DNA of 64,000 nucleotides from an uncultured Enterobacterales bacterium (GTDB lineage: Bacteria; Myxococcota_A; UBA796; CAJQPC01): positions 5,095 to 69,094 of the forward strand of contig CAZSZE010000012.1 of NCBI GenBank assembly GCA_964610645.1, read 5' to 3'. The translations under genes were made by a program, and so were the position numbers. Positions 6,504 through 63,510 of the stretch are shown here, in pieces; position 1 is the stretch's first letter; the number at the start of each line of letters is the position of its first letter. Below the pieces are notes generated by a model. The model was not told the origin of the DNA. It made no database searches and saw only the letters and a program-made list of their open reading frames with translations.

Positions 6504-6510
6504 GGAGGGG

Positions 6511-7029: not shown

Positions 7030-7058
7030 TCGGGGACTTGACCCCTGGGGCAACGCCT

Positions 7059-15339: not shown

Positions 15340-15416
15340 GGTGCCGCCGGATCTAACACAACGGAGCCCCAGAGAACCGCATCGCCGCGCTATAAAGCTC
15401 CACGGGAGGCCGTCCT

Positions 15417-18806: not shown

Positions 18807-19008
18807 GGAACCGGCTGCCCAGGTGGCCGTGAAGTGAGGCGTGCGAAATCACACAAGTTCCTGTGATATGCGGGGCCTTGGCGTTGTTTGGCGGTGGTAT
18901 GATCCCTACTACCGCATAGGGAAGACAGGGAGGTCCGGAAACCCCTCCCCTCATGGGCCAGGGGACCGTCGGGCCTGGGGACGAACGCAGGAATCTGGGA
19001 GGCGATTG

Positions 19009-20529
19009 ATGGGAACCGAGTTCGGGGACCTGAGCACGGGCACACCCCACTACTCGGATAACTGGGCCGAAATGAAGGCCTACGTGAGTTTCACCGAGGA
19101 GGACTCACAGAGGCTCGCGGAGGTCCTCCCACTGCTGCGCCCTCACTTCAGGCAGCTGGTGGGGCACTTCTACGAGGTGATCGCAGAGTTTCCAGGGGCA
19201 AGGAGCGTCTTGAAGGACGATTCGCAGGTGGAGCGGCTTCAAAAGACGCTTCTGAATTGGTTGGTCGAGCTCTTTGAGGGACCCCATGACCTGTCCTATT
19301 TCGAGAGCAGGCGGCGAATCGGAGAGGTGCATGTAAGGGTCGGGTTGGAAGAGAGGTACATGTTTACGGCGATGAGCGTCATTCGCAGTGACCTTCTCGA
19401 TGTGGTCGCGGAGGTTTGTTCATCGGAAAAGACGGGCGAGATCAGCCGGTCCATTCTTCGAATCACGGATCTGGATCTTGCGGCCATGACAACTTCCTAC
19501 CGGGAGACACGAGAGCTGGCCCGTCTACAGGCATTGCACTCGGAGGTGGTCCAGAATCTTCCCGCGGGTGTGATTTGCATGGATCGAGCTGGGATCGTCA
19601 CCGCGGTGACAGAGATGACCAGGTTGATCTTGGGAGTGGACGTTGAGGTCGGTGACCAGGCTTTGGAAGTGCTTCCGACAGGGCTGTTCGGTGGAACATC
19701 GCTGGCACAGCTTCTCGAAGAGGTAATCCCTTTGGGGGTCCCCAAGCACATTGGTGGCGTGACCCTGGGCACAGGACAGGAAAGACGGACACTGCGCCTG
19801 AACGTTGTGCCCATGTTCCACGGCCTGTCGGACCTCATGATCAAGGTAGAAGACATCACGGAGGAGACCCGCGCCGAGCTGGAGGCCCGTCAGTCCAAAT
19901 CCCTCGCCCAGATTGGTGCGCTCACGGCCAATCTCGCCCATGAGATTCGAAATCCTCTCGCCGGTATCTCTTCCACGGTGCAGGTGGTGATGGGGGGGTT
20001 GGCGGAGAGTGATCGGCGGCGAAGAGCGCTGGCGCTTGTCACAGAACAGGTCGCCCGGTTGGATCACCTCGTGACCGATCTGCTCCTCTTTGGTCGCGCA
20101 ACGACGCCGCGTTGTGAGCGCACCGACTTGGGTGCTCTTGTTCTTGAGGTCATCAACGACAGGGGTTTCAATTCCGATTTCTTGGAGCGGGGCACAGCTT
20201 TGGCTTGGGCGGATCCGGACTGCGTGTGCCAGGTGCTCGTGAATCTCCTGCAGAACGCACTGGCAGCAGCAGGTCCGGGAGGCAGGGTCCTGGTCCGGGT
20301 AGGCCCGGGCCCGCAATTGGAGGTGCTGGACGATGGGCCCGGCGTGGAGGCGTCCGTACGGGAGACTCTCTTCGGTGCTTTTGTCACCACCAAGGCCAGG
20401 GGTACGGGCCTGGGTCTTGCAATCAGTCGCCAGATTTCGGAAGCGATGTCGGGAACCCTTGTCCTGGTGGAGGCGCCTGAGGATTCCCTTGGGGGGGCCT
20501 GTTTTCGCCTCAGCTTTCCTTCTGCTTGA
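19009..20529 (+). CDS. Globin-coupled sensor histidine kinase (sensor globin - PAS-like - HisKA - HATPase)
   Basis: The ATG at 19009 follows a GGGAGG Shine-Dalgarno sequence. The N-terminal sensor-globin/protoglobin signature has FTEEDSQRL, GHFYEVI (distal Tyr context) and RRIGEVHVRVGL (proximal His context). The H-box is LAHEIRNPLAGI. The ATPase domain has G-boxes (DDGPGV, GTGLGLAI). Confidence 0.8.
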   Translation: MGTEFGDLSTGTPHYSDNWAEMKAYVSFTEEDSQRLAEVLPLLRPHFRQLVGHFYEVIAEFPGARSVLKDDSQVERLQKTLLNWLVELFEGPHDLSYFESRRRIGEVHVRVGLEERYMFTAMSVIRSDLLDVVAEVCSSEKTGEISRSILRITDLDLAAMTTSYRETRELARLQALHSEVVQNLPAGVICMDRAGIVTAVTEMTRLILGVDVEVGDQALEVLPTGLFGGTSLAQLLEEVIPLGVPKHIGGVTLGTGQERRTLRLNVVPMFHGLSDLMIKVEDITEETRAELEARQSKSLAQIGALTANLAHEIRNPLAGISSTVQVVMGGLAESDRRRRALALVTEQVARLDHLVTDLLLFGRATTPRCERTDLGALVLEVINDRGFNSDFLERGTALAWADPDCVCQVLVNLLQNALAAAGPGGRVLVRVGPGPQLEVLDDGPGVEASVRETLFGAFVTTKARGTGLGLAISRQISEAMSGTLVLVEAPEDSLGGACFRLSFPSA

Positions 20530-21901
20530 TCTGGATTCCGTGCTTCTCGAGGCGGTAGCGTAGGGCGTAGCGGCTGATGTCAAGCAGCTTGGCGGCTTGC
20601 ACTTGGTTGCCCTGGGTGCGGGCCAGGGCTTGTTCCAGAAGTTGGCGCTCAACCTCCTCCAGGCTCGCCCCCGCCTCCCCCAGGACCAGCAGATTTTCGG
20701 GAACCGCTTCCCCCGGCTTGGGGTTGTGCGCCCTGGCCTCCTTGGGAAGGTGTGCGACCTCAATTGTCTCGTCTGCCTCAAGGATAATGGCACGCTCGAT
20801 CACGTTTCGAAGCTCCCGCACGTTTCCGGGCCATGGGTAGCTACACATCAGGTCCATTGCTTCCACACTGACACCGGTGATTTCCCGGCGATATTCCCTG
20901 TTGAATTGCCGCACGAAGTGATCCACGAGAAGTGGGATGTCGGTTCTACGCTCTCGAAGAGGAGGCACGACCAACTCCACGACGTTCAGCCGGTAGAAGA
21001 GGTCCTGGCGAAATGTCTTCTTCTGTACCTCTTCTGCCAGGTTTCGGTTTGTGGCCGCGATCACGCATGCGTCCATCTTGATGTCGTGGACGCTTCCCAC
21101 TCGTCTAAACCGCCGATTTTCCATGATTCGAAGGAGCTTGGCCTGCACCCCGATGCCCAACTCCCCGATCTCATCGAGAAAGAGCGTTCCGCCCTTGGCG
21201 ATCTCGAAGAGACCGGGCTTGGCAGTCCTTGCATCCGTGAAGGCACCTCGCTCGTGACCAAACAGCTCCGATTCGATCAGGGTCTCGGGCAGGGCAGCAC
21301 AGTCTACCTCCACATAGAGCCCATCCGATCGGGTGCCCGAGTCATGAATGGCCTTGGCGAGAAGGTCCTTTCCGGTTCCCGTTTCTCCTTGAATCAGGAT
21401 GGCTGGGGGATCCACGTCCTTCAATCGCTCGACGAGGGAGAGGACCCTCCGAATGCCGGCGGATTCTCCGATAATGCGTCCATAGTGGCGCTCGGCGCTC
21501 TTCTTGAGGTATCGAACTTCTAGTTGCAGGCGATGGCTCTTCAGCGCCTTCTCCACGGCGAACTCCACTTCCCGAAGATCGAAGGGCTTGCTCAGGTAGG
21601 CGTGGGCGCCCAGGCGGGTGGCCTCGATGGCTGACTCAATGGCCTCGAAGGCCGTGAGGACAATGACCGGCAGGGTGCTCTCTGTCTCTCGCAGGTGGCG
21701 CAGCACATCCAGTCCGCCCATCTGTGGCATTCGCAAGTCGGTGATCAAGAGGTCTGGTGAGACCGACGTGATCTGTTCAAGGCACTCCTTTCCGTTCTCC
21801 GCTTCGAAGATGCGATAGCCCAGGCCCTCCATGTGCTCCCGAAGCGCCCACCGGATGAGCGGTTCATCGTCACAGATGAGAATGTTGACGGGAACTTCCA
21901 T
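20510..21901 (-). CDS. Sigma-54-dependent response regulator (NtrC family enhancer-binding protein)
   Basis: Probable start is MEVPVNILICDDEP (21901). It has a receiver domain, an AAA+ core with Walker A GETGTGKD and the sigma-54 contact loop GAFTDA (a GAFTGA variant), and a C-terminal Fis-type HTH (AAKLLDISRYALRYRL). The 3' end overlaps the kinase gene by 20 nt (convergent). Confidence 0.9.
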   Translation of the reverse strand: MEVPVNILICDDEPLIRWALREHMEGLGYRIFEAENGKECLEQITSVSPDLLITDLRMPQMGGLDVLRHLRETESTLPVIVLTAFEAIESAIEATRLGAHAYLSKPFDLREVEFAVEKALKSHRLQLEVRYLKKSAERHYGRIIGESAGIRRVLSLVERLKDVDPPAILIQGETGTGKDLLAKAIHDSGTRSDGLYVEVDCAALPETLIESELFGHERGAFTDARTAKPGLFEIAKGGTLFLDEIGELGIGVQAKLLRIMENRRFRRVGSVHDIKMDACVIAATNRNLAEEVQKKTFRQDLFYRLNVVELVVPPLRERRTDIPLLVDHFVRQFNREYRREITGVSVEAMDLMCSYPWPGNVRELRNVIERAIILEADETIEVAHLPKEARAHNPKPGEAVPENLLVLGEAGASLEEVERQLLEQALARTQGNQVQAAKLLDISRYALRYRLEKHGIQIKQKES

Positions 21902-22033
21902 GGGCTGGCATCCTCTCCATTCGCTCTGGAAAAGCCATTTTTCCCAGTCAATCGCTTGCAAGCGCCATGCCGGCTGAATGAAGGCGCCGAGGGGAAGCGT
22001 ACGGCGATCGGGAATGTTCGCCTATTCTGTTGT

Positions 22034-33226: not shown

Positions 33227-33325
33227 AAACCCCACAGTTTTGCCCGGTGAGGCTGTGCGTTGTTTGCGCCAGGTGTGGTGGGCGGTAGGCACGAACCTGC
33301 TCGAATTTGGGTGTATGATGGGTGT

Positions 33326-34957
33326 ATGAGCAGTGCAGCCCGCTCGGGACGGCGGTTGGCGTGGTGCCTCCCCCTTGCTTGGACCGCTGCCTCGTGCGCG
33401 GGCTGGAAGGATGGCCCAGATCAGGACACGTCCGCGAACCAACGGGAAGTGGTGGATGGTGATCCAAAGAGAGAGGCCTGTTCCGACTTGTCCATGGAGC
33501 CAGGCCAGACCGTTCGGCTGCGCAAGGAGGATGTCCTCGGGCTGGAATTTCCGGATCAGAGAGGGCCGGGGTTGGTGCTTGTAGACCTGAATGAGGATGG
33601 CTGGCTGGACCTGGTCTGGGCGATCCCCGCGGGGGCCTCGAGGATCTTCCTGAACGATGGGGAGGGCCGTTTGGAGCGCGTGGGCGGGACCATTCTAGGT
33701 GGGGACCGCCTGCCTCCGGCCATCGCTGTGGCGGCAGCGGACCTGAACGGGGACGGCGCCACAGACCTTGTGCTTGCGTCGAAGACGGGACATCCCGATC
33801 GGGTCTTGACCCACTTGGGTGGCTTGGACTTTTCCTCCACCAAGCTGCCGGGGAGCGAAGGCGAGTCAAAGACCATCTCCATCGCGGATGCGGACAATGA
33901 TGGTGACCTGGACCTCTTCATTTGTGGGTTCTCCGCCAATGTGCCGGTGAACCCAGAGAGCGACCCGGACTGGGTCGAGCCGCACGGTGAAGGGAACTTC
34001 CTGTATTTGCAGCAGTCCGATGGCAGCTGGCTCCAGGCTTCAGATGCTCTTCCCCCGGAGATTCTGAACTCGCAGTGCTACCAGGGCACCTGGTTGGACA
34101 CCGAGGGAGACGGCGACCTTGATCTCTATGTTTCCAACGAATCGGGAATGCACTTTGTGCCCAACCAGCTTCTGCTGAACGACGGCGACGGGCATTTCGA
34201 CATCGACCCGAACTGCAATTGCGATCTGCCCATCGAGGGTATGGGCGGGGCGCTGGGCGACGTCAACGGGGATGCCCTGCCCGATCTCTACCTGACCGAC
34301 ATCGGGAGAAACCACTTGCTGGTCAACCTGGGCGAGGACGGCTTTGTGAATGAGACGGCGGCGCGGCAGGCCCTCCCGGACCAGGAGAACATCGGGGCTT
34401 CCTGGGGCACCCAGTTCGTGGACTTGAACCGGGATGGGTTGGAAGATCTCGTGACGGCCTATGGGCGCTTGATGCTCGAGGAGCAGGACAGTGCGGAGCA
34501 GGATGTGATCCTTGTCCAGCAGGAGGATGGCCTCTTTCGCGATGTCTCGGTGGAGGTTGGCTTTGATGGGGAGGGCGTGGGAAGGAACGTGGTGGTGGGG
34601 GACTTGGATCGGGATGGTCGACCGGATGTGATCACGGGGGGGGTACAGCTTGACTACGGCTCCTACTTCTTCCGGACCTGGTTTGCTCGGGGGGGCTGCC
34701 CCACAGGGATTCAGCTTGGCTTCCCCCATTCTTTTGGGTTCGGGCCAAGGGTGGAGGTGACGCTGCCAGATGGCCGCACCTACAACCGCTGGCTGGAGAC
34801 CTCGAGCACCTACGGCGCCTCGGCGCCGGAGCTGACCCTTGGGCTGGCCGGTTGGGCTTTCGCCGAAGTGACTGTCCATTGGCCGTGGGGGACGTCAGAA
34901 TCCCTGGGCCAGCTGTCCGCTGGGGCCGTTCTTGAGGTCGCTCAGACCGACCGGTGA
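33326..34957 (+). CDS. CRTAC1-family protein (FG-GAP/VCBS repeats + ASPIC/UnbV C-terminal domain)
   Basis: The ATG at 33326 gives a signal peptide plus lipobox-like LAWTAASC. Repeats include DLNEDGWLD, DLNGDGATD, DADNDGDLD, DTEGDGDLD, DVNGDALPD, DLNRDGLED and DLDRDGRPD. The C-terminal RVEVTLPDGRTYNRW...TVHWPWG is typical of the UnbV/ASPIC domain. Confidence 0.8.
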   Translation: MSSAARSGRRLAWCLPLAWTAASCAGWKDGPDQDTSANQREVVDGDPKREACSDLSMEPGQTVRLRKEDVLGLEFPDQRGPGLVLVDLNEDGWLDLVWAIPAGASRIFLNDGEGRLERVGGTILGGDRLPPAIAVAAADLNGDGATDLVLASKTGHPDRVLTHLGGLDFSSTKLPGSEGESKTISIADADNDGDLDLFICGFSANVPVNPESDPDWVEPHGEGNFLYLQQSDGSWLQASDALPPEILNSQCYQGTWLDTEGDGDLDLYVSNESGMHFVPNQLLLNDGDGHFDIDPNCNCDLPIEGMGGALGDVNGDALPDLYLTDIGRNHLLVNLGEDGFVNETAARQALPDQENIGASWGTQFVDLNRDGLEDLVTAYGRLMLEEQDSAEQDVILVQQEDGLFRDVSVEVGFDGEGVGRNVVVGDLDRDGRPDVITGGVQLDYGSYFFRTWFARGGCPTGIQLGFPHSFGFGPRVEVTLPDGRTYNRWLETSSTYGASAPELTLGLAGWAFAEVTVHWPWGTSESLGQLSAGAVLEVAQTDR

Positions 34958-34958
34958 A

Positions 34959-36113
34959 CTACCGGGGCGTCACCACGCCAGCGCTGTTGGCCCAGGCGAT
35001 CTCGGCAAAGTAGGTCACGGTGTCTTCGCCGCTGATCTGCCGGGTGTCCGTCCATTCGAGGGCACCGTTGAGGTACACGTTCATGGTGACGGGGTTTGCG
35101 CCTTCATAGGAGCTGCCCGGGTAGTCGTGCACGGCAATGGTGTAGGTGCCGTTTGTGGGCGACTTGATGTTGATGTTCTCCGGGCCGGTCCCCGTGATGT
35201 CATCCAGGTCCAGGGACGGGTCGTCGTCGGTGCTGCTTGCGCTGCCCCAGTTCACGCCGCTCCAGGTGCAGTTGCGCCAGTGGCAGTCCGTGTCGTTGTC
35301 CCAGCTTGACCCGTCTTCGTAGTAGCCGCCCGGGGCGATGAGGTGCAGGTCCATGTCGTCGCCGGGATGGGTCCAGTACATCTCAATCCACATGTCCTCG
35401 TCCGGCGCGGACGTCACGGTGGTGCGGCACGGGGCCGACTGCATGCCGGAGTCGTTGGTCACGATCAACTGGCCGACGTACTCCCCGGCGAGGTCCGGGT
35501 AGAAACCGGTGCGGTTGGCCCCGCCTCCGGGCATGCCCACTGCGGACCCGCTGGGTGCGGTGATGAGGGTCCAGTCCCAGGACACCAGCGTGCCACCGGT
35601 GTTGTCGTAGCTGTCCTCGCCCCACCAGGTGACCGGGTCCACGAGGGGTTCCACTGTGTCGGGACGCGCTTCGCACACGGCGACGGGGACGTCCAGGGAG
35701 TTCCCAAACAGGTCCACGATCACTTCCGGCTCGTAGACATCACTGCTCTGCACCAGCACCTCGCCGACGGACTCGGCGCCAGACGGAATCAGTGAGACTT
35801 CAATCTCCACGGTTTCAGAAGCCAGCATGGCCGTAGGCCACCACTCGGTGAGAATGGAGAAGTCAGAGGAGCCCGACAACGTGATGTCCTGGATCTCCAG
35901 GGTGGCGTTGCCGACGTTGGTGATGGTGAAGCTCTTCACCTGGACGTCGGTCACCGCTTCAATGTTGTACGTAAGCTGCGTGGGTTCCACCAGAATGTGT
36001 GCACCCAGCGCGTCATCCTTGTTGGTCTCGTTCAGGCTGTAGTCTGAACAAGCGGTCGCACCCGAAAGGAGGGCGAATGCAAACAAGACGCAGGGAGAGG
36101 GACGACACACCAT
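34959..36113 (-). CDS. Secreted lipoprotein with Ig-like/choice-of-anchor-like N-domain and YfaP(DUF2135)-like C-terminal domain
   Basis: Signal peptide plus lipobox (LFAFALLSGATAC). The segment FTITNVGNATLEIQDITLSG is typical of ASH/choice-of-anchor-D-type Ig domains. The C-terminal pattern DDMDLHLIAPGG...DLDDITGTGPENINI...GTYTIAVHDY is present. Domain names are from memory only. Confidence 0.6.
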   Translation of the reverse strand: MVCRPSPCVLFAFALLSGATACSDYSLNETNKDDALGAHILVEPTQLTYNIEAVTDVQVKSFTITNVGNATLEIQDITLSGSSDFSILTEWWPTAMLASETVEIEVSLIPSGAESVGEVLVQSSDVYEPEVIVDLFGNSLDVPVAVCEARPDTVEPLVDPVTWWGEDSYDNTGGTLVSWDWTLITAPSGSAVGMPGGGANRTGFYPDLAGEYVGQLIVTNDSGMQSAPCRTTVTSAPDEDMWIEMYWTHPGDDMDLHLIAPGGYYEDGSSWDNDTDCHWRNCTWSGVNWGSASSTDDDPSLDLDDITGTGPENINIKSPTNGTYTIAVHDYPGSSYEGANPVTMNVYLNGALEWTDTRQISGEDTVTYFAEIAWANSAGVVTPR

Positions 36114-36274
36114 GGGAACCTCCGGGCAACGAGCGCCTTATGCCCACCTGCACCGGGGGGTGTCAAGGAAAAAACCAGGAAAACACCGCTCCTGCTTATG
36201 TTGTCAGGCGCAGGTCAGGACAATTTCCCTCCCGGTGGCATTGCATGATCTCCGAAACAAACTCGGAGGCACCC

Positions 36275-36397
36275 ATGTCCAACTCCTCACATTCCCGCTC
36301 ACCTTTCGTGAGTCTCACACGCCGACGTTGCCGTCCAGCCGAACACCTTGTCGGTCCTCCTTATTTATTTTGTGTAACCTTTCGGGTTCTACCCTAA
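36275..36397 (+). CDS. Possible 40-aa small ORF with strong Shine-Dalgarno sequence (uncertain)
   Basis: GGAGG lies 5 nt before the ATG at 36275. Translation is MSNSSHSRSPFVSLTRRRCRPAEHLVGPPYLFCVTFRVLP-stop. It sits in the 318-nt intergenic region upstream of the MerR gene. No family was recognised. Confidence 0.2.
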   Translation: MSNSSHSRSPFVSLTRRRCRPAEHLVGPPYLFCVTFRVLP

Positions 36398-36404
36398 ACA
36401 TGAT

Positions 36405-36418
36405 AGTGTCTCTACACT
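36405..36418. promoter_or_regulatory. Inverted repeat AGTGT-CTCT-ACACT just upstream of the MerR gene (candidate operator)
   Basis: Read directly at 36405-36418, with arms extendable to 6/8 matches (GATAGTGT / ACACTGAC). It lies 14 nt before the first possible MerR start. Confidence 0.25.
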
Positions 36419-36431
36419 GACGGAGACATGC

Positions 36432-37157
36432 ATGTCGGGGAGCGTTCAGGGCTGCGGGATCACGATGGGCGAGCTGATGCGCCTGACGGGCGTCAGCCGG
36501 GCGACCATCTACCACTACCTGGAGGTCGGGCTGCTCCCCCAGCCCGAGCGACCCAACCTGCGGATGGCCTACTACGACCCGGGCTGCGTGGATCGGGTCC
36601 GCGTCATCCTGGACCTCAAGGAGCGGCGATTCATGCCGCTGGACGCGATCAAGCGTGTCTTCGACGACGGCGGCCTCGATGGGCTCCACGACCTCGACGG
36701 CCGGCTGCTGCGGGCCATGCGACGGGACGCCGACGAGGGGGGCGACGCCATTGGCCGCGCCGAGCTCCTTGAGCAGCACCCGGTCGCCTCAGAGGTCCTG
36801 GAGTCCCTGGCGGGCGCCGGGCTGGTGGCTTCGGCCGACGGGCCCTTCTGCACTGAAGAGGTCGAGGTCGTGGCGGCGGTGCACGAGATGCGGGAGGCGG
36901 GGCTCAACGAGGATCTCGGCTTCTCGGTGGACCAGATGGGCCTGTACACTGCGGCGTTGCAGACCCTGATCGACCTCGAGCTCGCCACCTTCAACGAGCG
37001 CGTGCTCGGCGCGGTCTCCCCCGAGCGGGCCGCGCCGATGGCCCATGTCGCCGTGGAGGCAACCTCGAGGATGCTGGGCGCGCTACACCGCCGACTGCTG
37101 CGCGATCGCCTCGAAGGCCTCGTCGCCGCGACGGATTCCACGAAGGAGAGACAATGA
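36432..37157 (+). CDS. MerR-family transcriptional regulator
   Basis: The N-terminal HTH is MGELMRLTGVSRATIYHYLEVGLLP, followed by a helical C-terminal domain. An alternative start lies at 36465. The stop overlaps the next ATG (ATGA). Confidence 0.85.
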   Translation: MSGSVQGCGITMGELMRLTGVSRATIYHYLEVGLLPQPERPNLRMAYYDPGCVDRVRVILDLKERRFMPLDAIKRVFDDGGLDGLHDLDGRLLRAMRRDADEGGDAIGRAELLEQHPVASEVLESLAGAGLVASADGPFCTEEVEVVAAVHEMREAGLNEDLGFSVDQMGLYTAALQTLIDLELATFNERVLGAVSPERAAPMAHVAVEATSRMLGALHRRLLRDRLEGLVAATDSTKERQ

Positions 37158-38809
37158 AGAAGCAGTTCGACGTGATCGTCGTCGGTGCGGGCATCAACGG
37201 CCTGGCCTGCGGTGCCTACCTGGCCCGCGCGGGGCTGGATGTCGCCGTGGTCGAGCGCCGCAACGAGTGCGGCCCGTTCGCCATGACCGAGGACATCTTC
37301 GGGGCCGGCGTCCCGGTGGACACTCACGCGGGGGTCTGCTTCTTGCCGATGTCCCCGGTTTGGGGCGACCTCGAGCTGGGCCGATTCGGCCTCGACCTGA
37401 TCCTCCCCGAGATCCCTGCCGGGACGCTCTGGAAGGACCGGAACCTGCTGTACTCGTACAACCCGGTGAAGAACGCCGAGGCGGTCGGTCGGTTCAACAA
37501 GAAGGACGGCGAGACATTCTTGAACTTGACCACCCGGTTTCTCCCCCACATGGTCGAGGTGGCGCAGCGAGCCATCTTCAGCCCACCGTCCGAGGAAGGG
37601 GAGGACTACCTGTTCTCCCTGGGCGAGCTTGTCGGGTTCTCTGCCGCCGATCTGAGGACAATGAACGGCGTAGAGCTGCTGGAGCTGCTGTACGACGACG
37701 ACCATGTCCGCATGAGCCTGCTCGGTGTCGCCAACATCGGCGTCTTCGGCGACCCGGGCGAGAAGGGCGAGGGCGCGATCATGACGCTGCTGACGTGGGC
37801 CCTCTCCATCGGGGTTCCGCGTGGCGGGATGCACAACCTGGTGCACGCCCTGGTTCGCTGCTTCCGGAGCCACGGGGGCACACTGCTGCTCAACGCGCCG
37901 GTCGAGCAGGTCACCTGGTCGGCGGGCAAGCCCGACGGTGTCGTCCTGTCTGAGCACTCCGCCTACGGCCCCCTGGAGCTGTCGGCTACCGACGCGGTCG
38001 TCATGCACACCAGCCCCCCGATCGCCCGCCAACTCCTGGGTGAGCACGAGCTGAAGCGCCACGATCCGGCGCTTGCCCGCAAGATGGAGCACTGGGACAT
38101 GACCGGCCACTGCGCCTTCACGTCCTACTTCCTGCTCGACCGCCCCCCGCCGTGGGGGTCGGCTTCGTGGGACGCCGGTGTCAACAAGTGCGCCTTTCCC
38201 CTGCGCGCGTGGGACACCTGGGAGGAGGCCAAGCTGTCCTTCCAGCACGGCACCAACGAGGAGCTCTTCGACGTCGCCGGTGACGTGGGCGAAATGTACA
38301 ACCTGTCGCCCATCGACCCGAGCCGCCGCTCCCCTGACGGGCGCTCAGTGATCGTCTTCGAGATGGAGTACCCGGTGAACCTGCGCCGCTTCGGCGGCAA
38401 AGAGGCGTGGGACGACCGGGCGATCACCGATCGGCTGCACGCCGAGCACAAGGCCGACCTCGAGCGCCTCGCACCGGGAATCTCCAAGCACATCGTCAAC
38501 GAGTCCTACTCGACCCCGATGGACAACTGGCGGCGCAACCCGTCGGCGATCTACGGGCACGAGCTGGGCGGCGACGTCAGCGGCGGCCAGTGGTACCTCG
38601 GCCGGATGCCCAACCGGAGCGACATCGACGGGCTGTACTTCAGCCAGGGGGTCTGGCCGGCCTCGCTGACGCACCTGGGCAACGCCTACGTCACCGCCGG
38701 CTGCGTCGCGGAGGACCTGGGGGTCCGGGACAAGGAGTGGTGGTGCCACCGCCCCTTCGACTTCTTGATCGAGAACCCGCCGCCGATGGGAGGGCGCCGC
38801 CGTGGCTGA
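37154..38809 (+). CDS. FAD-dependent oxidoreductase, phytoene desaturase (CrtI)-family-like, copy 1
   Basis: The N-terminal dinucleotide-binding motif is FDVIVVGAGINGLACGAYLARAGLDVAVVERR. At 551 aa the length is typical of CrtI-like amine-oxidase-fold enzymes. Confidence 0.75.
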   Translation: MKKQFDVIVVGAGINGLACGAYLARAGLDVAVVERRNECGPFAMTEDIFGAGVPVDTHAGVCFLPMSPVWGDLELGRFGLDLILPEIPAGTLWKDRNLLYSYNPVKNAEAVGRFNKKDGETFLNLTTRFLPHMVEVAQRAIFSPPSEEGEDYLFSLGELVGFSAADLRTMNGVELLELLYDDDHVRMSLLGVANIGVFGDPGEKGEGAIMTLLTWALSIGVPRGGMHNLVHALVRCFRSHGGTLLLNAPVEQVTWSAGKPDGVVLSEHSAYGPLELSATDAVVMHTSPPIARQLLGEHELKRHDPALARKMEHWDMTGHCAFTSYFLLDRPPPWGSASWDAGVNKCAFPLRAWDTWEEAKLSFQHGTNEELFDVAGDVGEMYNLSPIDPSRRSPDGRSVIVFEMEYPVNLRRFGGKEAWDDRAITDRLHAEHKADLERLAPGISKHIVNESYSTPMDNWRRNPSAIYGHELGGDVSGGQWYLGRMPNRSDIDGLYFSQGVWPASLTHLGNAYVTAGCVAEDLGVRDKEWWCHRPFDFLIENPPPMGGRRRG

Positions 38810-40484
38810 CAACGAGACCCAGTATGACGTCATCGTCCTGGGCGCGGGCCCCAACGGGCTGACCTGCGCCGCCTACCTGGCTCGCGCGGGCGCGAAGGTC
38901 GCCCTGGTCGAGCGGAACACGGAGACCGGCGGGGGACTGGTCACCGAGGAGTTGTGCGGGTTCAAGATGAACTTCCACGCCACCTACATGATGCTCGGCG
39001 AGCAGATGCCGCCCCACACGGACCTGGACCTGGGCGCCGGCGGCGTTCGGTACGTTCGGCCCGAGCAGCAGGCCTCGTTTCTGTTCGACGGGCACGAGTC
39101 GCTGACGCTGTACACCGACATCGAGCGCTCGGTCGCCAGCATCGCGGCGCTGTGCCCGGCCGACGCCGATCCTGCCCGACGGCTGCTGACCGAGACGGCG
39201 AGCTTGTGCGAGGCCTTCCTGGTGCCGGCGACCTACGTCCCAGCGGTAGAGCCGATCGAGCAAATGTTGCTGCTACGGGACTCTGACGCGGTCGGCGATC
39301 GCATCGCGGAGATCTCTGAGGATTCGCCGCGGGAGTACATCGAGTCGTTCGGGTTCCGGGACCCGCGCGTGCTTGCGGGCTTTCTGTACCTGGTCTCGAT
39401 GTTTGGGCTGGACCCCGAGGAGGGGGGCATGGGCTTCCTGGCTCCCATCTACCTGCACCGGATGACGCAGGCCGCGCTGGTGCGGGGAGGCTCCCACCAG
39501 CTGTCCTCGACCCTGCGGCGAAAGGTCGAGGAGGCCGGCGGCAAGGTCCTGGTGGGGCGCGGAGCGCAGCAGATCGTGACTGAGGGCGGTCGGGCGGTCG
39601 GCGTCGTGCTGGAGGGGGGCCGCGAGCTGCGGGCCCGGGCGGTCGTCAGTACGCTGAACCCCGAGCAGACGTTCCTGCAGCTCCTGGAGGGCGGCCCGGT
39701 ACCGGTCGACGTGACCGACGCGGCCGCCGCCTACGAGTGGGAAAAGACCAGCATGTTCGTCGGGAACTGGGGGATCCTCGGTGGGGCGCCGCGCTACGAG
39801 GGCTGGCCGGACCACGTCGACCAGTCGCTGCTCGTGGCGATGGGGTACGAGTCCCCCGATGACGTCCTGGGGCACCTGCAGGAGGTGGCCGCGGGCGACA
39901 CCAGCCGGATGGCCGGTCACGGGACGGTCTGCTCGCTGCACGACCCGTTGATGGCCCCCGGTCACGTGCCTTTCGGGTCCCCGCACTCGATCCGGTGGGA
40001 GTCCTGGGCGCCGTTCGACGCCGACTGGAATCGCTGCACCGCCGACTACGCCGAGCGGGCGCTGGCGACGTGGACGCGGTACGCGCCGAACCTGGCATCG
40101 GCCAACATCCGGGCCTCCGTCCCGTGGTCTCCGCGGGACATCGAGCAGCACCTGCCGACCATGAAGCGCGGATCGATCAAGCACGGGGCCTACACCTCGC
40201 TGCAGATGGGGCACAACCGGCCGTTCCCGGACTGTACGAGCTATCGCACGCCGCTGGACGGGCTGTACGTCGGCGGCGCGAGCACCCACCCCGGCGGAAT
40301 GGTGATCCTGGGGCCGGGCTACAACTCGGCCCGGATCGTCGCCCACGATCTGGACCTGGACGTCTGGTGGGACGAGCCGGAGATGGTGGTCGCCGCCCGG
40401 GAGCGCGGGTACTTGCCCGACCCGGATGCGTTCGGCGCCGTCGGCGCGGTCGACAACGATCCGGCCCCCTGGATGCCGCGATGA
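38802..40484 (+). CDS. FAD-dependent oxidoreductase, phytoene desaturase (CrtI)-family-like, copy 2
   Basis: The dinucleotide-binding motif is YDVIVLGAGPNGLTCAAYLARAGAKVALVERN. The C-terminal LYVGGASTHPGGMV is typical of the family. It overlaps copy 1 by 8 nt. Confidence 0.75.
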   Translation: MADNETQYDVIVLGAGPNGLTCAAYLARAGAKVALVERNTETGGGLVTEELCGFKMNFHATYMMLGEQMPPHTDLDLGAGGVRYVRPEQQASFLFDGHESLTLYTDIERSVASIAALCPADADPARRLLTETASLCEAFLVPATYVPAVEPIEQMLLLRDSDAVGDRIAEISEDSPREYIESFGFRDPRVLAGFLYLVSMFGLDPEEGGMGFLAPIYLHRMTQAALVRGGSHQLSSTLRRKVEEAGGKVLVGRGAQQIVTEGGRAVGVVLEGGRELRARAVVSTLNPEQTFLQLLEGGPVPVDVTDAAAAYEWEKTSMFVGNWGILGGAPRYEGWPDHVDQSLLVAMGYESPDDVLGHLQEVAAGDTSRMAGHGTVCSLHDPLMAPGHVPFGSPHSIRWESWAPFDADWNRCTADYAERALATWTRYAPNLASANIRASVPWSPRDIEQHLPTMKRGSIKHGAYTSLQMGHNRPFPDCTSYRTPLDGLYVGGASTHPGGMVILGPGYNSARIVAHDLDLDVWWDEPEMVVAARERGYLPDPDAFGAVGAVDNDPAPWMPR

Positions 40485-40795
40485 GGCTGGCATCCAAGGG
40501 ACTGGGAAAGATGACGCTGCCCTTCCGGCTGTCCGAGGCGGACGTCGTCCTGGAGGATGGAGAGTTGATGTTCCAAGGGGTGATCAAGGAGCGTACGGTC
40601 AACTGGCCGTACCGGGCACAGCTGCAGGAGTCCGACATCGTCGGGTTCGTGGTGCTCGCGCGCCGGCCCGAGGTCGTGCGCTTCGTGGCCGAGCAGATCG
40701 GCCTGCGGCTGGTCGGTGCGCTGTTGGGGGCGACGCTCCAGCTGCTGGCCCACCCGTTCCGGCGGCAGCGCGCCCAGGAGGAGTCGAAGTCGTGA
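40481..40795 (+). CDS. Small protein (104 aa), unknown; tandem paralog 1
   Basis: The ATG at 40481 overlaps the upstream stop (ATGA). The sequence is MRLASKGLGKMTLPF..., with a hydrophobic C-terminal segment (LVGALLGATLQLLA). Codon usage is the same as the flanking flavoprotein genes. Confidence 0.5.
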   Translation: MRLASKGLGKMTLPFRLSEADVVLEDGELMFQGVIKERTVNWPYRAQLQESDIVGFVVLARRPEVVRFVAEQIGLRLVGALLGATLQLLAHPFRRQRAQEESKS

Positions 40796-41121
40796 AGTTC
40801 TGGTCCAAGGGTCTGGGGAAGCGCTGCCTGCACGTGGACTGCGGCAGCGAGGAGCCTTCGGTCGAGGGCGACCAGCTCGTGCTCGAGGGGACGACGCCGC
40901 CGCCGCTGAACTGGGCCTACACGATGCAGATGGACGGCGTGGACTGGATCGAGTTCGTCTCGTTTGCGCTGCGCCCCAAGGTGGTCCGGCACATGCTGGC
41001 TCGCCGTCGGTGGGGCCTGGCGCTGCAGGCGGGCTGGCACATGGCGTGGTTCGTCGCGGCGGTGGTCTTCACGTTGCCGGGCGCGTGGGTGCGGAAGGCG
41101 CGGGTCTCGGGACACCCCTAA
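40792..41121 (+). CDS. Small protein (109 aa), unknown; tandem paralog 2
   Basis: The GTG at 40792 overlaps the upstream stop (GTGA). The sequence (V)KFWSKGLGKRCLHV... shares SKGLGK, L(E/V)(D/L)(G/E)...NW(P/A)Y and ...RP(E/K)VVR motifs with paralog 1. The C-terminus has a TM-like segment (MAWFVAAVVFTLPGAWV). Confidence 0.5.
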   Translation: MKFWSKGLGKRCLHVDCGSEEPSVEGDQLVLEGTTPPPLNWAYTMQMDGVDWIEFVSFALRPKVVRHMLARRRWGLALQAGWHMAWFVAAVVFTLPGAWVRKARVSGHP

Positions 41122-42404
41122 ACGGCCTCTGGCGCTCCCGACGCGAATGCCTTCACACTGGGGTCCGTTCCAAAGTGGGCGTCCGTCACCAGGCGTCGTC
41201 GAACGCCCGTGTCCAGGTGATCCCAGACCCGGGACGGAATTCCATCTCCAGCCCACCAGATGTGGAATTCCTCGGCCAGGGCGTCTCGCAGAAAGTCCAC
41301 TCGGCCCCGGTGGACCACCTGGCCAGAACCGTCCATCGCTGCGACCCCCGTCATTTCGGACACTTCTCCGCCGTGGGCGGTTTCGGCCCGCTTCTTCCGG
41401 CGGGCCCGGGAGAAGTCCAGGCGAACCACGCCGTTGGGGGCATAGAAGCGAACGAGGTCCTCCACCAGCTGTTGGTGAACAACCCGGCGAAGATCCGGCC
41501 CCATGGCGGCCAGGGCGGGGGTGTCCTGTTCCAGGTCAGCTGGGTGGGGGCCTGGATCTCGCTTTGCGTAGACAGGGCCCGGGTCCAAGGCGAGTCCGCT
41601 GGAGGCGTGTGGCATCGGAAGGTCCAGAGCGGTCTCCAGTCGATCGGTGGGCACCCAGCCCAAGGTGCTTCGGGTGGTCATGGGTTCCACGCTGATGTCC
41701 CCTGGGGGCAGGGCGGCAAAGGCTGTCTTGCGGCGGCGGGTGTTGTGAACCAGCGGGCGAATCAGTGTGTTCAACTCTTCGCCGGAGTAGGCGTGGGCCC
41801 CCCCCATGCAGGGAGCCCGGCCTGGAACCAGGGTGTCCAGGTGGTCCAGAATGCTCCTCGCCACCTCGGTGCGTGACACCGGGGCGTAGCGGGAGGCGGA
41901 ACGAAAGACATAGGGTGCGCCGCCATCGGGGGGCCAGACATGGCCTTCGATGATCTCGTCGAAATAGCAGCTGATTCGCAGCAGGCCCCAGGGACCCGCC
42001 GCGCTGCGCACCCGCTCATCCAGGTGGAAGCTCATGCGATTGAGTCGGGAGGGTGACCACCGAAAGGCGCCCATGACCGTCACATGGAGAATGCCTGTGG
42101 CGCCAGCGGCGGTAGCAGCCTGAATGATGTTCGCTGCGGCGTTTTTTCCGTAGAGGGGCGCATCCGGTCCTGCCGTGCGGGGATCAATGCAGGAGATCAC
42201 CCGGGTGGCTCCCTTCAGGACTGCACCAAGGGACGCGGGGTGATCAGCGTCCGCATAGGACACGCACCGAATGGGAAGTGCCTTGTTCAGGCGGCTGACG
42301 TCCCGGTCGGAACGGGCGATGGCCCGGACTTCCAGTCCCCGCCGAGTTGCCTCCGTGACCACCTCGGACCCTGTGCGTCCGTTTGCTCCAAAAACCACCA
42401 GCAT
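41118..42404 (-). CDS. NAD(P)-binding (NmrA/atypical SDR-like) protein with uncharacterised C-terminal domain
   Basis: The N-terminal MLVVFGANGRTG is a Rossmann GxxGxxG motif. The protein is 428 aa. Its stop overlaps the convergent stop of 40792-41121. Confidence 0.65.
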   Translation of the reverse strand: MLVVFGANGRTGSEVVTEATRRGLEVRAIARSDRDVSRLNKALPIRCVSYADADHPASLGAVLKGATRVISCIDPRTAGPDAPLYGKNAAANIIQAATAAGATGILHVTVMGAFRWSPSRLNRMSFHLDERVRSAAGPWGLLRISCYFDEIIEGHVWPPDGGAPYVFRSASRYAPVSRTEVARSILDHLDTLVPGRAPCMGGAHAYSGEELNTLIRPLVHNTRRRKTAFAALPPGDISVEPMTTRSTLGWVPTDRLETALDLPMPHASSGLALDPGPVYAKRDPGPHPADLEQDTPALAAMGPDLRRVVHQQLVEDLVRFYAPNGVVRLDFSRARRKKRAETAHGGEVSEMTGVAAMDGSGQVVHRGRVDFLRDALAEEFHIWWAGDGIPSRVWDHLDTGVRRRLVTDAHFGTDPSVKAFASGAPEAV

Positions 42405-42449: not shown

Positions 42450-44474
42450 CTATTCGCAGGCGGTCTCCAGAGGTTCGGACCGGTTGTTGTCTTCGTTGCA
42501 CTCGAGGATCCACCCGGCTCCCTGGCCATCGTCATCTGCCACCAGGCGGAGTTCTGCCCCTGCGGTCTGGGCGGAATCCAGGGGAATCATGACGCCGGGG
42601 CTGGTCTGTCCGGGCAGGACGGGTGCGCTCAAGGCCGAGGTGTGCAAGACCTCCTGGCTGCCGTCTCTATTGGCGTACAAGGTGAGCTGGGTGTGGGCAG
42701 GAAGGGGATCCATGCCCTCGTTTCCCAGGCGCACCACCACCGAGAGTTGGTCTTCCCCGCAGCCGTCCATGCAGACGCCCTCGATGAGCGGAACAGCATC
42801 CGGCAGCAGGCCATGGCCCAGGTTGACCAGGGTGCCTGCCCGAAAGGAGTTGTACTGGGGCCAGTTCGCCGCAGCGGGGCTGGGGATCTGCATGTCCTCC
42901 TGGATGTTGGTGATGCTGTAGGCATGTTGGTTCCAAACGGTGCGGGCGGGACGCCAGGAGTCGTTGGCGCTCCCAAAGACCGTCAGGCCCGCCGCGCCGC
43001 CTGGCACGTGGTCACCGCCATGGGCCACCACGATCTCCGCCCGGCCGTCCCCATCCACGTCGGCGATGACCGGGTACTCGTGGAGCGTTCGAGAGGTGTG
43101 GGAGGGGTCTGTGTACCGGATGACGCCTGTTCGACCGTCGAAGACATACAGGGCGGTCTCGTCTCCGTAGAGGATTTCCGACATTCCGTTGCCATCGAAG
43201 TCGAACACGGAAGAGCCGGTGGCATGGGAGGAAGCGTCGGTGATTTCCCGCTTCCAAAGGACGGTGCCGTCCGCCTCGTAGACCGCGTAGTAGTCGGCAT
43301 CGGCGATACCGATCTCCACCAGGCCATCGTTGTCCATGTCCGCCAGCGTGGGGGGGCCACCGTTGCCGGACCCCGCCAGGGAAAAGGAGGCGGTTTCGTG
43401 GCAGTTGCGATCCATGATGTGTACGGCTCCACCACCGACCGTGACCAGGTCGCCCAGGCCGTCGTTGTCCAGGTCGGCGACCGCTGGGAACCCGTCCAAT
43501 TCGTCCGCGCGGCTGCAGCGCTGGGCCCCGGTGGACTCGTGGATCGACTGGCCGGTGATGACCTCCATTGATCCGTCTCCATCCAGATCCGCAGCAAAAG
43601 ACTGGAATCCGATGTCGTCGTAGGCTGCAAACGTTCCCTTTCCGAACACCAGCTCCCAGGCGAGCTCCCCTGTGGAACCATGGATCACCAGGGGTCCCAG
43701 AATCACCTCCACGGTGCCGTCCCCCTCCAGGTCTGCGAGGGCAGGGGAGTGTCCGCCACAGCGAACCTGGGGTTCGGTCATCGCCCAGTCCAATTCCCCG
43801 TCATGGGTAAATGCAGCCACCACGCACTTGTTCGGATCGATCATGCGGACGGGCACCTCCCCTGTGTCGGGGGGTGGACCCGGCTCCTCCGGTTGGATGT
43901 TCGAGATCGCCTGCGCAACCAGGACAATCTCTGGCAGTCCATCGCTGTCGATGTCTCCCAGGGCCACGTTGGAGTATTGGTACGGGTGGAAGTCGAGATC
44001 GCCGACCACGATCCGAGAGAGGGTCTGGTGCACTGCGCCCGTCGCACCGTCCTGGATTCGAAGCACGCCGTGCAAGTGGCCCGTGCCGAGCCCCTCGTCG
44101 GCGATGCTCACGATGTCCGGGGTGTCGGAGGCGTTGATGATGCCATCGGCGTTGTCGTCGGTGAGCTGGCCTACCACCGGGACCATCAGCACCTCCCGGA
44201 AGGTTCCCATCTCATGAAAGATGTCCGTGGCCCACTCCACCACCATGTCCAGGTCCGACGTCTGGTCCACAACACAGGACTCGTTTTTTCCGACGCGGGT
44301 AGATCGCGCCACCTGCTCCTCGTCGCAGACATCGACTTCCAGGCCCATCACCGACGTGGAGCGGTAGATGGCGGTGTCGTGTCCCCCTTCCGAGCCGGGG
44401 GGATCCTTGAGGTCCACCCCGTAGTCGATGCAGCCTCCCCACAGGGCGACGAGTCCAACAAGGGGGAGGGTCAT
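42450..44474 (-). CDS. FG-GAP/VCBS repeat beta-propeller lipoprotein (paralog C)
   Basis: MTLPLVGLVALWGGC is the lipobox. Blades: DDNADGIIN, DIDSDGLPE, LEGDGTVE, DLDGDGSME, DLDNDGLGD, DMDNDGLVE, DFDGNGMSE, DVDGDGRAE. It has a WNQHAYSITNI motif and a C-terminal LECNEDNN...C. The ATG overlaps the upstream stop (ATGA). Confidence 0.8.
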   Translation of the reverse strand: MTLPLVGLVALWGGCIDYGVDLKDPPGSEGGHDTAIYRSTSVMGLEVDVCDEEQVARSTRVGKNESCVVDQTSDLDMVVEWATDIFHEMGTFREVLMVPVVGQLTDDNADGIINASDTPDIVSIADEGLGTGHLHGVLRIQDGATGAVHQTLSRIVVGDLDFHPYQYSNVALGDIDSDGLPEIVLVAQAISNIQPEEPGPPPDTGEVPVRMIDPNKCVVAAFTHDGELDWAMTEPQVRCGGHSPALADLEGDGTVEVILGPLVIHGSTGELAWELVFGKGTFAAYDDIGFQSFAADLDGDGSMEVITGQSIHESTGAQRCSRADELDGFPAVADLDNDGLGDLVTVGGGAVHIMDRNCHETASFSLAGSGNGGPPTLADMDNDGLVEIGIADADYYAVYEADGTVLWKREITDASSHATGSSVFDFDGNGMSEILYGDETALYVFDGRTGVIRYTDPSHTSRTLHEYPVIADVDGDGRAEIVVAHGGDHVPGGAAGLTVFGSANDSWRPARTVWNQHAYSITNIQEDMQIPSPAAANWPQYNSFRAGTLVNLGHGLLPDAVPLIEGVCMDGCGEDQLSVVVRLGNEGMDPLPAHTQLTLYANRDGSQEVLHTSALSAPVLPGQTSPGVMIPLDSAQTAGAELRLVADDDGQGAGWILECNEDNNRSEPLETACE

Positions 44475-57365: not shown

Positions 57366-57384
57366 TGGTGACCGAGTGTCACCA
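57366..57384. promoter_or_regulatory. Perfect inverted repeat TGGTGAC-N5-GTCACCA in the leader of the nitrate reductase cluster
   Basis: Read directly. It ends 2 nt before the AAGGGGAGG Shine-Dalgarno sequence of the cytochrome c gene. It could be an operator or a 5'-UTR hairpin. Confidence 0.3.
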
Positions 57385-57401
57385 GCAAGGGGAGGTTGCC
57401 G

Positions 57402-58277: not shown

Positions 58278-58301
58278 GACACAAGAAACACGGGGAACAT
58301 C

Positions 58302-61916: not shown

Positions 61917-61953
61917 TCCGCGTCCCTTCACCCCTGCAGACTCGAGGCAAGTC

Positions 61954-63510
<1,557 letters not shown>

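Follow-up and report, generated by a model that had tools for sequence, protein, structure and literature searches.

We analyzed a stretch of 64,000 nucleotides from contig CAZSZE010000012.1 (assembly GCA_964610645.1, positions 5,095 to 69,094), hereafter the window, in which five genes lie in a row on the plus strand: a gene for a MerR-family regulator (merR), genes for two flavoproteins (fp1 and fp2), and genes for two small proteins (s1 and s2). We found that the segment carrying these genes (the cassette) was almost certainly inserted by horizontal transfer between two adjacent host genes, as judged from comparison with related contigs. Taken together with the coding content, the segment is likely to be a horizontally inserted cassette encoding an enzyme system of the type of CtmAB, the limonene dehydrogenase of Castellaniella defragrans. 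Horizontal transfer is ordinary biology, but the present case is unusually well documented, by an empty site, by junctions mapped to the nucleotide, and by orthologous cassettes that serve as a composition control.

The regulator gene merR (36432-37157) encodes 241 amino acids (aa). It is followed by fp1 (37154-38809), encoding the alpha-type flavoprotein subunit of 551 aa, and fp2 (38802-40484), encoding the beta-type subunit of 560 aa, and then by the genes of the small partner proteins, s1 (40481-40795; 104 aa) and s2 (40792-41121; 109 aa). The list of open reading frames (ORFs) and direct reading place overlaps at all four junctions, namely ATGA (37154-37157), GTGGCTGA (38802-38809, 8 nt), ATGA (40481-40484), and GTGA (40792-40795); the five genes are one translationally coupled operon. 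The initial annotation had described five co-directional ORFs with four overlapping junctions, which we found at exactly the coordinates that it gave, and its reading of the two small genes as paralogs holds as well (36% identity over 67 aa, E 7e-12). The two flavoproteins are also paralogous, but only distantly (31% identity within the first 270 aa, E 7e-24). The same annotation had singled out the conservation of the five-gene set for examination; the set recurs, with different flanks, in three other loci (L001, L084, and L089).

Empty sites and boundaries of the insertion

The host gene on the left of the insertion (34959-36113, minus strand) encodes a secreted or lipoprotein-like protein of 384 aa and has a GC content at third codon positions (GC3) of 0.845. 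The host gene on the right (41118-42404, minus strand; GC3 0.73) encodes an NmrA-like NAD(P)-binding protein of 428 aa. These two genes adjoin each other in relatives. The first empty site was found in a metagenome scan with the NmrA-like protein: in L090, approximately 120-140 nt separate a 62%-identical NmrA-like gene from the gene that follows it, a homolog of the 384-aa gene with 71% identity. A 91%-identical relative of the CoxA protein of the window is encoded on two long contigs, L095 (238 kb) and L096 (170 kb), in which the gene order is that of the window: MBOAT, two unknown genes, a TM2 protein, an FG-GAP protein, the NmrA-like gene, and the 384-aa gene, then a second FG-GAP protein, COX2-COX1-COX3, and onward to a carbamoyltransferase gene. 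The NmrA-like and 384-aa genes are 75 nt apart in both contigs, and the cassette is absent.

The boundaries were determined using blastn. Positions 1-6200 of L095 correspond to positions 47332-41118 of the window (83.8% identity), and positions 6205-8931 correspond to positions 36184-33468 (81.1% identity); the 4 nt between the aligned blocks in L095 replace 4,933 bp of the window (36185-41117), i.e., a non-coding leader of 247 nt and the five genes. On the right side, homology with the relatives ends exactly at the NmrA stop codon, and the C-terminus and stop codon of the NmrA-like protein are intact and colinear with those in L095 and L090. The last codon of s2 lies across the junction or in host-derived sequence, and its TAA stop codon (41119-41121) lies in host-derived sequence; therefore, the end of s2 was created by the insertion junction. 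On the left side, the 71 nt in front of the 384-aa gene (36114-36184, minus strand) are the host promoter region of that gene (TTGACA ... GGCATAAGG ... GGAGG ATG), which is conserved in the intergenic region of L095 and L090 and is not part of the insert. Consequently, what had been described as a single spacer upstream of merR is composed of 71 nt of host sequence and 247 nt imported with merR. The break falls at the same nucleotide positions in two independent relatives (L090 and L095/L096). It should be noted that the insertion is real and not an assembly chimera, because the identical cassette is joined to the same NmrA gene in two further assemblies (L083 and L091). These results show that the cassette moved recently between bacteria, and the cassette-bearing and cassette-free relatives constitute a natural strain pair for comparison.

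Alignment of the junctions revealed a 5-nt direct repeat (GGTGT in the minus-strand reading) at both of them, and a k-mer search found one 8-nt inverted match between the junction zones, as is expected by chance. Both signals are weak and could reflect chance or microhomology. Among 72,556 known plasmids searched by tblastn with fp2, no close relative was found (best 29% identity).

The cassette and the NmrA-like gene converge, and their stop codons overlap (TAA at 41119-41121 on the plus strand and TAG at 41118-41120 on the minus strand), with no terminator between them. The sole terminator-like hairpin for minus-strand transcripts (36194-36176, followed by a T-run) is located at the far end of the insert, half in the insert and half in the host sequence. 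Because the stops overlap and no terminator intervenes, transcription of the NmrA-like gene could run antisense through the whole cassette.

Paired flavoproteins with a His-Ala motif

Two characterized systems serve as references for the flavoproteins. CtmA and CtmB are COG1233 proteins with 27% mutual identity, encoded in the operon ctmABCDEFG, in which ctmA and ctmB are followed by the orphan hypothetical genes ctmC and ctmD and then by genes for a ferredoxin (CtmE) and a reductase (CtmF) (PMC4109377). The delta-24 steroid desaturase of Sterolibacterium denitrificans consists of an alpha (WP_067170564) and a beta (WP_067170561) subunit with 26% mutual identity; its subunits carry covalent flavin on the histidine of the consensus G-F-L/R-X-N/S-T/L-H-A, which is also found in CtmA and CtmB, and its nearest uncharacterized relatives are in Acidimicrobiales and Deltaproteobacteria (PMC11061730).

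A comparable motif is found near the N-terminus of both flavoproteins of the cassette, GVPVDTHA in fp1 (His58, codon 37325-37327) and GFKMNFHA in fp2 (His59, codon 38976-38978). In fp2, H59 and A60 are invariant in 61 homologs. The proteins of alpha and beta type that are listed for the paired clade have the His-Ala pair, which is replaced by Ser, Cys, or Phe in more distant, mostly unpaired relatives (L035-L082, 24-30% identity). Each protein also has an N-terminal Rossmann motif (GAGINGL in fp1 and GAGPNGL in fp2); the C-terminal flavin signature is GASTHPGGM in fp2 and is degenerate in fp1.

Both proteins match the Pfam families Amino_oxidase, DAO, and NAD_binding_8. The AlphaFold model of fp2 (predicted local distance difference test, pLDDT, 91.1) had its best Foldseek match in CrtD (4rep; E 9.6e-26, template modeling (TM) score 0.74/0.84) and matched CrtI (4dgk) at E 3e-20; no solved structure closer than these two was found by Foldseek. 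A phmmer search of PDB sequences with fp1 and fp2 returned mostly the Rossmann ends of many flavoproteins, with CrtI, CrtD, and 3ka7 at E 8e-9 to 8e-6. The predicted fold is of the three-domain CrtI/amine-oxidase type with an N-terminal Rossmann motif.

The closest homologs include proteins of Myxococcales-type metagenome-assembled genomes (MAGs), with 71-74% identity for fp1 and 66-70% for fp2. Homologs of fp2 at 44-70% identity are all found in MAGs named Myxococcales, Acidimicrobiales, Nitrospirae, Thermoleophilia, Anaerolineae, and others; Deltaproteobacteria and Acidimicrobiales, the groups published as nearest to the desaturase, give 35-60% identity here. A genome scan detected an fp1-like gene followed by an fp2-like gene side by side in many phyla, at dozens of loci, including Smithella, Syntrophorhabdus aromaticivorans, Desulfonema, Dehalococcoidia, Binatia, Acidimicrobiia, and a Nitrososphaerales archaeon. 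The family is broad, comprising many bacterial phyla and one archaeal MAG, and is recognizable by the His-Ala motif together with the alpha/beta pairing. The archaeal representative, L019 (positions 2410-5721, labeled Nitrososphaerales archaeon), encodes an alpha/beta pair with 31% and 37% identity to fp1 and fp2, respectively, both with His-Ala; the family may reach into Archaea, unless L019 is mis-binned. Tandem runs of two to four flavoprotein genes of the family occur in L012, L013, L015, L016, L018, L021, L029, and L033; such tandem pairs suggest substrate diversification, as in catabolic gene families.

Proposed function and alternative explanations

We propose that a segment from a donor of higher GC content (GC3 ~0.9) was inserted between two host genes of a Myxococcota-like bacterium and that its alpha and beta subunits form a heteromer with a flavin in each, probably bound covalently to His58 (alpha) and His59 (beta). 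By analogy with the characterized enzymes, the heteromer would attack a hydrophobic, isoprenoid-like substrate at an allylic carbon, from which it would remove a hydride or hydrogen without the use of O2; either an allylic alcohol would be formed with water, or a conjugated double bond would result. We give this specific chemistry an even chance of being correct. The electron route may run to the quinone pool, because the cassette contains no ferredoxin genes. To our knowledge, flavin-dependent, O2-independent hydroxylation or desaturation of unactivated allylic carbons is represented by two characterized enzymes only, neither with a solved structure, and we know of no natural electron acceptor established for the delta-24 desaturase.

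The neighbors of homologous modules are informative with respect to the pathway. In L085/86, a small gene, merR, fp1, and fp2 are followed by genes for acyl-CoA (coenzyme A) dehydrogenase and aldehyde dehydrogenase. In L087, a TetR regulator takes the place of MerR, and the module continues into genes for a CoA-transferase, a short-chain dehydrogenase/reductase (SDR), an acyl-CoA dehydrogenase, a mutase, and a hydratase; in L088, the module follows an aldehyde:ferredoxin oxidoreductase gene. Overall, homologous modules adjoin aldehyde dehydrogenase, aldehyde:ferredoxin oxidoreductase, SDR, acyl-CoA dehydrogenase, and CoA ligase/transferase genes, and these neighbors point, by analogy, to catabolism of a hydrocarbon-like substrate. 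The repeated occurrence of aldehyde-oxidizing and acyl-CoA genes next to homologous modules favors a hydroxylase as the first enzyme of a route from hydrocarbon to acid to CoA, as for limonene. Follow-up genes are missing from the window, so that in this host the cassette may work by itself, in modification or detoxification, or may depend on genes that are not linked to it.

No catabolic genes are found downstream of the five genes in the window, L084, and L089, where the set stands by itself. This arrangement also fits a biosynthetic or tailoring module that acts on an endogenous lipid (a polyprenol, a quinone side chain, a sterol or hopanoid precursor, or a polyene), and the delta-24 desaturase demonstrates that an enzyme of this family is able to introduce a double bond into an isoprenoid side chain (PMC11061730). 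A further point in the same direction comes from L001, a Myxococcales MAG, where a gene of the leucine-carboxyl-methyltransferase family (PF04072; 10317-11165) follows s2 in the same direction with an 11-nt overlap; this gene is absent from the cassette of the window and might hint at substrate or product chemistry in L001. However, both characterized members of the family are catabolic (PMC4109377, PMC11061730), other homologous modules are embedded in clusters for aldehyde and acyl-CoA oxidation, and a close relative lacks the cassette, which is therefore dispensable for core lipid synthesis. We consider a biosynthetic role unlikely.

Several observations weigh against a CtmAB-type system brought in by transfer. 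No alcohol or aldehyde dehydrogenase is encoded in or beside the cassette, so the pathway is not visible there. Unlike the ctm operon, the cassette lacks the ferredoxin (CtmE) and the reductase (CtmF), and none of its five genes encodes an Fe-S or reductase domain. In the motif of fp1, T, H, and A of the published consensus are kept and the rest diverges, so that the match is partial. The likeness to CtmA/B (CDM25289/90) and to the desaturase (WP_067170561/64) rests on motif, pairing, gene order, and published descriptions and taxonomic neighborhood, not on alignment. Purified CtmAB and delta-24 desaturase are reported to be alpha-beta enzymes without small subunits (PMC11061730), and the hydrophobic segments of s1 and s2 are borderline for a transmembrane helix (Kyte-Doolittle 1.44-1.45). 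As for the transfer itself, we found no integrase or transposase in the insert, no tRNA in the 64-kb window, and no terminal repeats at the junctions, where alignment and k-mer search also detected no clear target duplication or terminal inverted repeats.

The similarity of the flavoproteins to carotenoid enzymes raises the question of whether they modify carotenoids under control of MerR, as in the light-induced carotenogenesis of myxobacteria and Streptomyces. MerR-type regulators of the CarH/LitR kind control carotenoid genes, the host is Myxococcota-like, the nearest solved folds are CrtD and CrtI, and the best partial NCBIfam matches are the CrtO ketolase, crtI_fam, and CrtD. All these matches are, however, far below the family cut-offs: the scores of fp1 and fp2 are 54.9 and 90.2 bits for crtI_fam (TIGR02734; cut-off 238), 80.7 and 141.8 bits for CrtO (cut-off 1000), and 49.4 and 80.1 bits for CrtD (cut-off 580), and fp1 alone matches HpnE (43.5 bits; cut-off 283). 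By these scores, the two proteins are outside the curated CrtI, CrtD, CrtO, and HpnE families. Domain scans of the larger ORFs of the window detected no crtB, crtE, or cyclase gene (phytoene synthase, prenyl diphosphate synthase, and lycopene cyclase domains), in agreement with the initial annotation, which had reported the absence of carotenoid partner genes. The MerR protein has no B12-binding domain, CrtI has neither the His-Ala motif nor an obligatory alpha/beta pairing (PMC11061730), and paired homologs are plentiful among strict anaerobes (Smithella, Syntrophorhabdus, Desulfonema, and Dehalococcoidia) and are located beside catabolic CoA genes. A carotenoid function is, thus, improbable. 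The suggestion of the initial annotation that two CrtI-fold flavoproteins act on a non-carotenoid substrate gains support from the scores and, in addition, from the pairing, the His-Ala motif, and a gene order as published for CtmAB and the delta-24 desaturase.

The cassette is a compact five-gene unit for heterologous expression and for substrate discovery among terpenes, sterol side chains, and polyprenyl compounds.

A family of small partner proteins

Protein s1 consists of a conserved N-terminal domain (MRLASKGLGK...W) and a C-terminal hydrophobic or amphipathic helix. In the model of s2, residues 1-72 are confident (five strands and two helices, pLDDT 78-90) and the C-terminal part is poorly defined; a hydrophobic segment spans residues 75-93 (Kyte-Doolittle 1.44, compared with 1.7-2.1 in s2 orthologs). 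Neither protein matched Pfam or NCBIfam, including a Pfam scan of all 65 aligned members of the family at E <= 1. A YscD BON-like domain that appeared below threshold in eight members (best E 0.005) was judged to be noise. Among PDB sequences, a profile of the family had no match below E 0.8, and a Foldseek search of PDB with the s2 model yielded no match below E 0.49.

Using an iterative profile search and fetched loci, we detected relatives of s1 and s2 beside flavoprotein pairs in more than 20 loci. Some of the small genes are downstream of the beta gene, as here; often, one copy is located upstream of the alpha gene. Orthologs of s1 are present in L001, L003, L084, L087, and L089. Across 23 diverse members, M1, S5, G7, L8, G9, and W41 are invariant, and the N-terminus reads M-x3-S-x-G-L-G. 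There were 487 word-indexed matches in large protein databases, all of them annotated as hypothetical and without Pfam domains; among 1.84 billion representatives, the family forms 293 clusters at 50% identity, with the domain almost always starting from residue 1. The members come from genomes of 38% to 70% GC, across phyla.

We compared 28 non-redundant loci, each with two or more His-motif flavoproteins, with 44 loci of His-less relatives. A gene of the small family was present at 21 of the former and at none of the latter (21/28 vs 0/44). In the reverse test, three small genes were chosen solely for lying on long contigs, and all three (3/3) were directly upstream of a flavoprotein pair (570 aa and 470-532 aa). 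The small-protein family is rare, we did not find it described, and its genomic coupling to the His-motif pairs is strict.

It could be argued that s1 and s2 are spurious ORFs in GC-rich DNA, or unrelated membrane peptides traveling with flavoprotein genes. The lack of Pfam, NCBIfam, and PDB relatives, the low confidence of the C-terminal third of the s2 model, the alpha-beta composition of the purified enzymes, and the 7 of 28 paired loci without a small gene are in line with this explanation. Conversely, invariant residues are retained across phyla and over the entire range of GC content, in 293 clusters with the domain starting from residue 1, and the association with the His-motif pairs is strict in both directions of the test. 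The start and stop codons of both genes overlap those of the neighbors, and their GC3 values (0.905 and 0.936) are coding-like. We regard this explanation as having a slim chance.

The small proteins would dock by the invariant N-terminal domain, and the C-terminal helix would serve membrane association; alternatively, they may act in maturation of the enzyme. We tentatively propose, with somewhat less than even confidence, that they are an obligatory third (here, also fourth) component of all CtmAB-type covalent-flavin dehydrogenases, serving as an anchor to the membrane and the electron acceptor or as a dedicated maturation (flavinylation) factor, and that ctmC and ctmD encode the first, overlooked members. 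If this is true, the cassette would be a self-contained, transferable four-subunit module for oxygen-independent hydrocarbon oxidation. In any case, a small, unannotated partner protein travels with the family, and biochemical work has not considered such a partner.

Two deviations from the typical organization were observed. In Actinomycetes and Acidimicrobiia MAGs, the conserved N-terminal domain of 75 aa is followed by long, low-complexity C-terminal tails (up to 293 aa) rich in Pro, Ala, and Glu (L012 3170-4051, L018 4100-4744, L011 2127-2657, and L025 7665-8261). The s1 ortholog in L084 (9636-9950) retains the N-terminal domain, with 53.7% identity over the first 54 aa only; its C-terminal half is fully divergent, and the locus lacks a gene call. 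This copy may be frameshifted or in decay.

Nucleotide composition of the cassette

The GC3 values of the cassette genes are 0.897 (merR), 0.918 (fp1), 0.916 (fp2), 0.905 (s1), and 0.936 (s2), with a pooled value of 0.915. The 35 other ORFs of the window have a GC3 of 0.762 +/- 0.053, with a maximum of 0.865; every cassette gene is above every one of these background ORFs (z 2.6-3.3). In codon usage, fp1 and fp2 are at distances of 1.17 and 1.13, respectively, from the average of the window, compared to 0.71 +/- 0.15 (maximum 1.10) for the background. The cassette is nearer in codon usage to the background of L001, a MAG of 70% GC (distance 0.69), than to that of its own host (1.13). The GC3-rich codon usage perceived in the initial annotation is, thus, confirmed in numbers. 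Its estimates of total GC made by eye (70-78% in the cassette vs 58-60% in neighboring lines) overstated the difference, which is 0.689 for the cassette vs a mean of 0.629 for the other 35 ORFs. The 318-nt spacer (36114-36431) is AT-richer, as had been noted (GC 0.544).

Orthologous cassettes served as a control for an intrinsic bias of the genes. The orthologous cassette in L001 has a GC3 of ~0.93 (fp1, fp2, and s2), with neighbors at ~0.9; the corresponding values for cassette and neighbors are 0.77 and 0.74 in L084, 0.88 and 0.86 in L085, 0.75 and 0.74 in L087, and 0.75 and 0.74 in L089. High GC3 is not intrinsic to the cassette genes, because the orthologs in these five genomes match their own neighbors. 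The anomaly in the window is the signature of a donor with a GC3 near 0.9. The same values speak against the alternative that the operon is native and highly expressed, with selection for preferred codons, or that it was present ancestrally and was deleted from the relatives, an explanation that could draw on the raised GC3 often seen in strongly expressed genes of high-GC genomes and on the lack of integrase, tRNA, terminal inverted repeats, and clear target duplication, but that is very improbable in view of the flanking genes being adjacent in L090 and L095/L096 with the break at identical positions, the end of s2 in host-derived sequence, and the GC3 of the cox operon, a set of host core genes, of only 0.78-0.81.

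Horizontal acquisition, which the initial annotation had put forward as a possibility, is supported by the syntenic relatives with an empty site at the exact position and by the normal composition of orthologous cassettes. That annotation had also considered the opposite outcome, in which composition would not deviate and the best hits would be in close relatives with the same flanks; the relatives with the same flanks proved to be devoid of the cassette. In contrast, its impression of an actinobacterial-like style is not supported: an Acidimicrobiales-labeled MAG contains more distant homologs (60-65% identity) than the Myxococcales-type MAGs (66-74%). An actinobacterial donor was rejected on the same comparison.

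Regulator and imported leader

The helix-turn-helix (HTH) domain of the MerR protein scores 50.5 bits with PF13411 (cut-off 21.6) and 37.1 bits with PF00376 (cut-off 28.2). It is followed by a long helical C-terminal domain that is weakly similar to Rv1828/FtsR; weak or faint Rv1828_C matches are also present in the precomputed annotation of the regulator orthologs, which precede the same flavoprotein pair in L001, L084, L085/86, and L089. The scores of the MerR, CueR, CadR/PbrR, and FtsR equivalogs are 16-46 bits, with cut-offs of 147-261 (46.5 bits for FtsR, cut-off 150), and Pfam and NCBIfam scans revealed no metal-binding or B12 domain. These scores indicate that the protein is not of the metal-sensing type and is not an FtsR ortholog.

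The imported leader (36185-36431, plus strand) contains a candidate promoter with TTGTGT (36370-36375), a 19-nt spacer, and TAAACA (36395-36400); the 19-nt spacing would be typical of MerR-type promoters. Direct reading also identified the palindrome AGTGTCTCTACACT at 36405-36418 and a ribosome-binding site, GGAGA, at 36422-36426. An inverted-repeat search and a sigma-70 consensus scan of the leader and operon detected no promoter, so that the candidate is unconfirmed, and terminator-like hairpins in the same sequence are at chance level (3 vs 1.9 expected). When the regions upstream of merR in the window, L001, L089, and L086 were compared by eye, GTGT..ACAC-type palindromes were seen in three of them with inconsistent spacing; no operator was established. 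MerR presumably activates the operon from the imported leader when an effector, plausibly the substrate, is present.

Host and neighboring genes

Other matches to CoxA of the window are approximately 70% identical, and the named ones are mostly MAGs labeled "Deltaproteobacteria bacterium" or "Myxococcales bacterium". The host is, by its sequence relationships, Myxococcota-like, with an aa3 oxidase, and it probably respires aerobically. Four large FG-GAP/VCBS-repeat proteins are encoded in the window (1775-3997, 7059-9164, 33260-34957, and 42450-44474), two of which flank the insertion region. These genes are paralogous: positions 3508-4488 of L095 also align to positions 7450-8430 of the window at 69%. 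A molybdopterin oxidoreductase (1,212 aa) and then an Fe-S subunit with a nitrate-reductase-beta C-terminal domain are encoded at 58278-63510, preceded by a c-type cytochrome (57372-58277); the set is a NarGH-like or related Mo-enzyme complex. A regulatory cluster (15396-22021) encodes a Ser/Thr kinase of 1,136 aa that contains AAA_16 and TPR domains, a histidine kinase with a protoglobin domain (18838-20529), and, on the minus strand, a sigma-54-dependent response regulator (20510-22021).

Comparison with known systems

The cassette most probably belongs, by analogy, to the CtmAB/delta-24-desaturase kind. It shares with CtmAB two adjacent COG1233/CrtI-fold genes of approximately 550-565 aa that resemble each other only distantly (27% identity there, 31% here), and an order of alpha, beta, and two small hypothetical genes (ctmC and ctmD there, s1 and s2 here), the latter being a match of position only. 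Both CtmAB subunits are reported to bind flavin covalently at the N-terminal His-Ala motif, and the published closest relatives of CtmAB are in Deltaproteobacteria, as are many of those found here. Besides the missing ferredoxin and reductase, the differences are a MerR regulator here and a LuxR regulator there, the aa3 oxidase of the cassette host, and the lack of follow-up genes of the geraniol/geranial dehydrogenase type nearby.

The delta-24 desaturase is similar in its alpha/beta paralogs, each with the flavin-bearing histidine in the motif. It has no Fe-S cluster, and its site of action in an isoprenoid chain is allylic owing to a double bond that is already present. Unlike the cassette, it belongs to a setting of sterol degradation that includes Mo-dependent C26 hydroxylases, for which no genes are seen beside the cassette, and small partner genes are not mentioned for it (PMC11061730).

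With the CrtI family, fp2 shares the overall fold (Foldseek E 1e-25 to 3e-20, TM up to 0.84 when target-normalized), the N-terminal Rossmann motif, and the C-terminal G-x-x-x-H-P-G-G signature. Unlike CrtI, CrtD, CrtO, and CrtISO, which are single polypeptides, the cassette encodes a two-gene pair with small partners, and its His-Ala motif would imply covalent flavin. The MerR protein resembles Rv1828/FtsR-like regulators in having a PF13411 HTH and a long helical C-terminal domain; unlike FtsR, it is linked to a flavoenzyme operon and not to cell division genes, and it has neither the metal-binding cysteines of the CueR/MerR type nor the B12 domain of the CarH type. Within the CtmAB/delta-24-desaturase kind, the cassette is set apart by its MerR regulator, the absence of a ferredoxin module, the duplicated small partners, and an aerobic, Myxococcota-like host.

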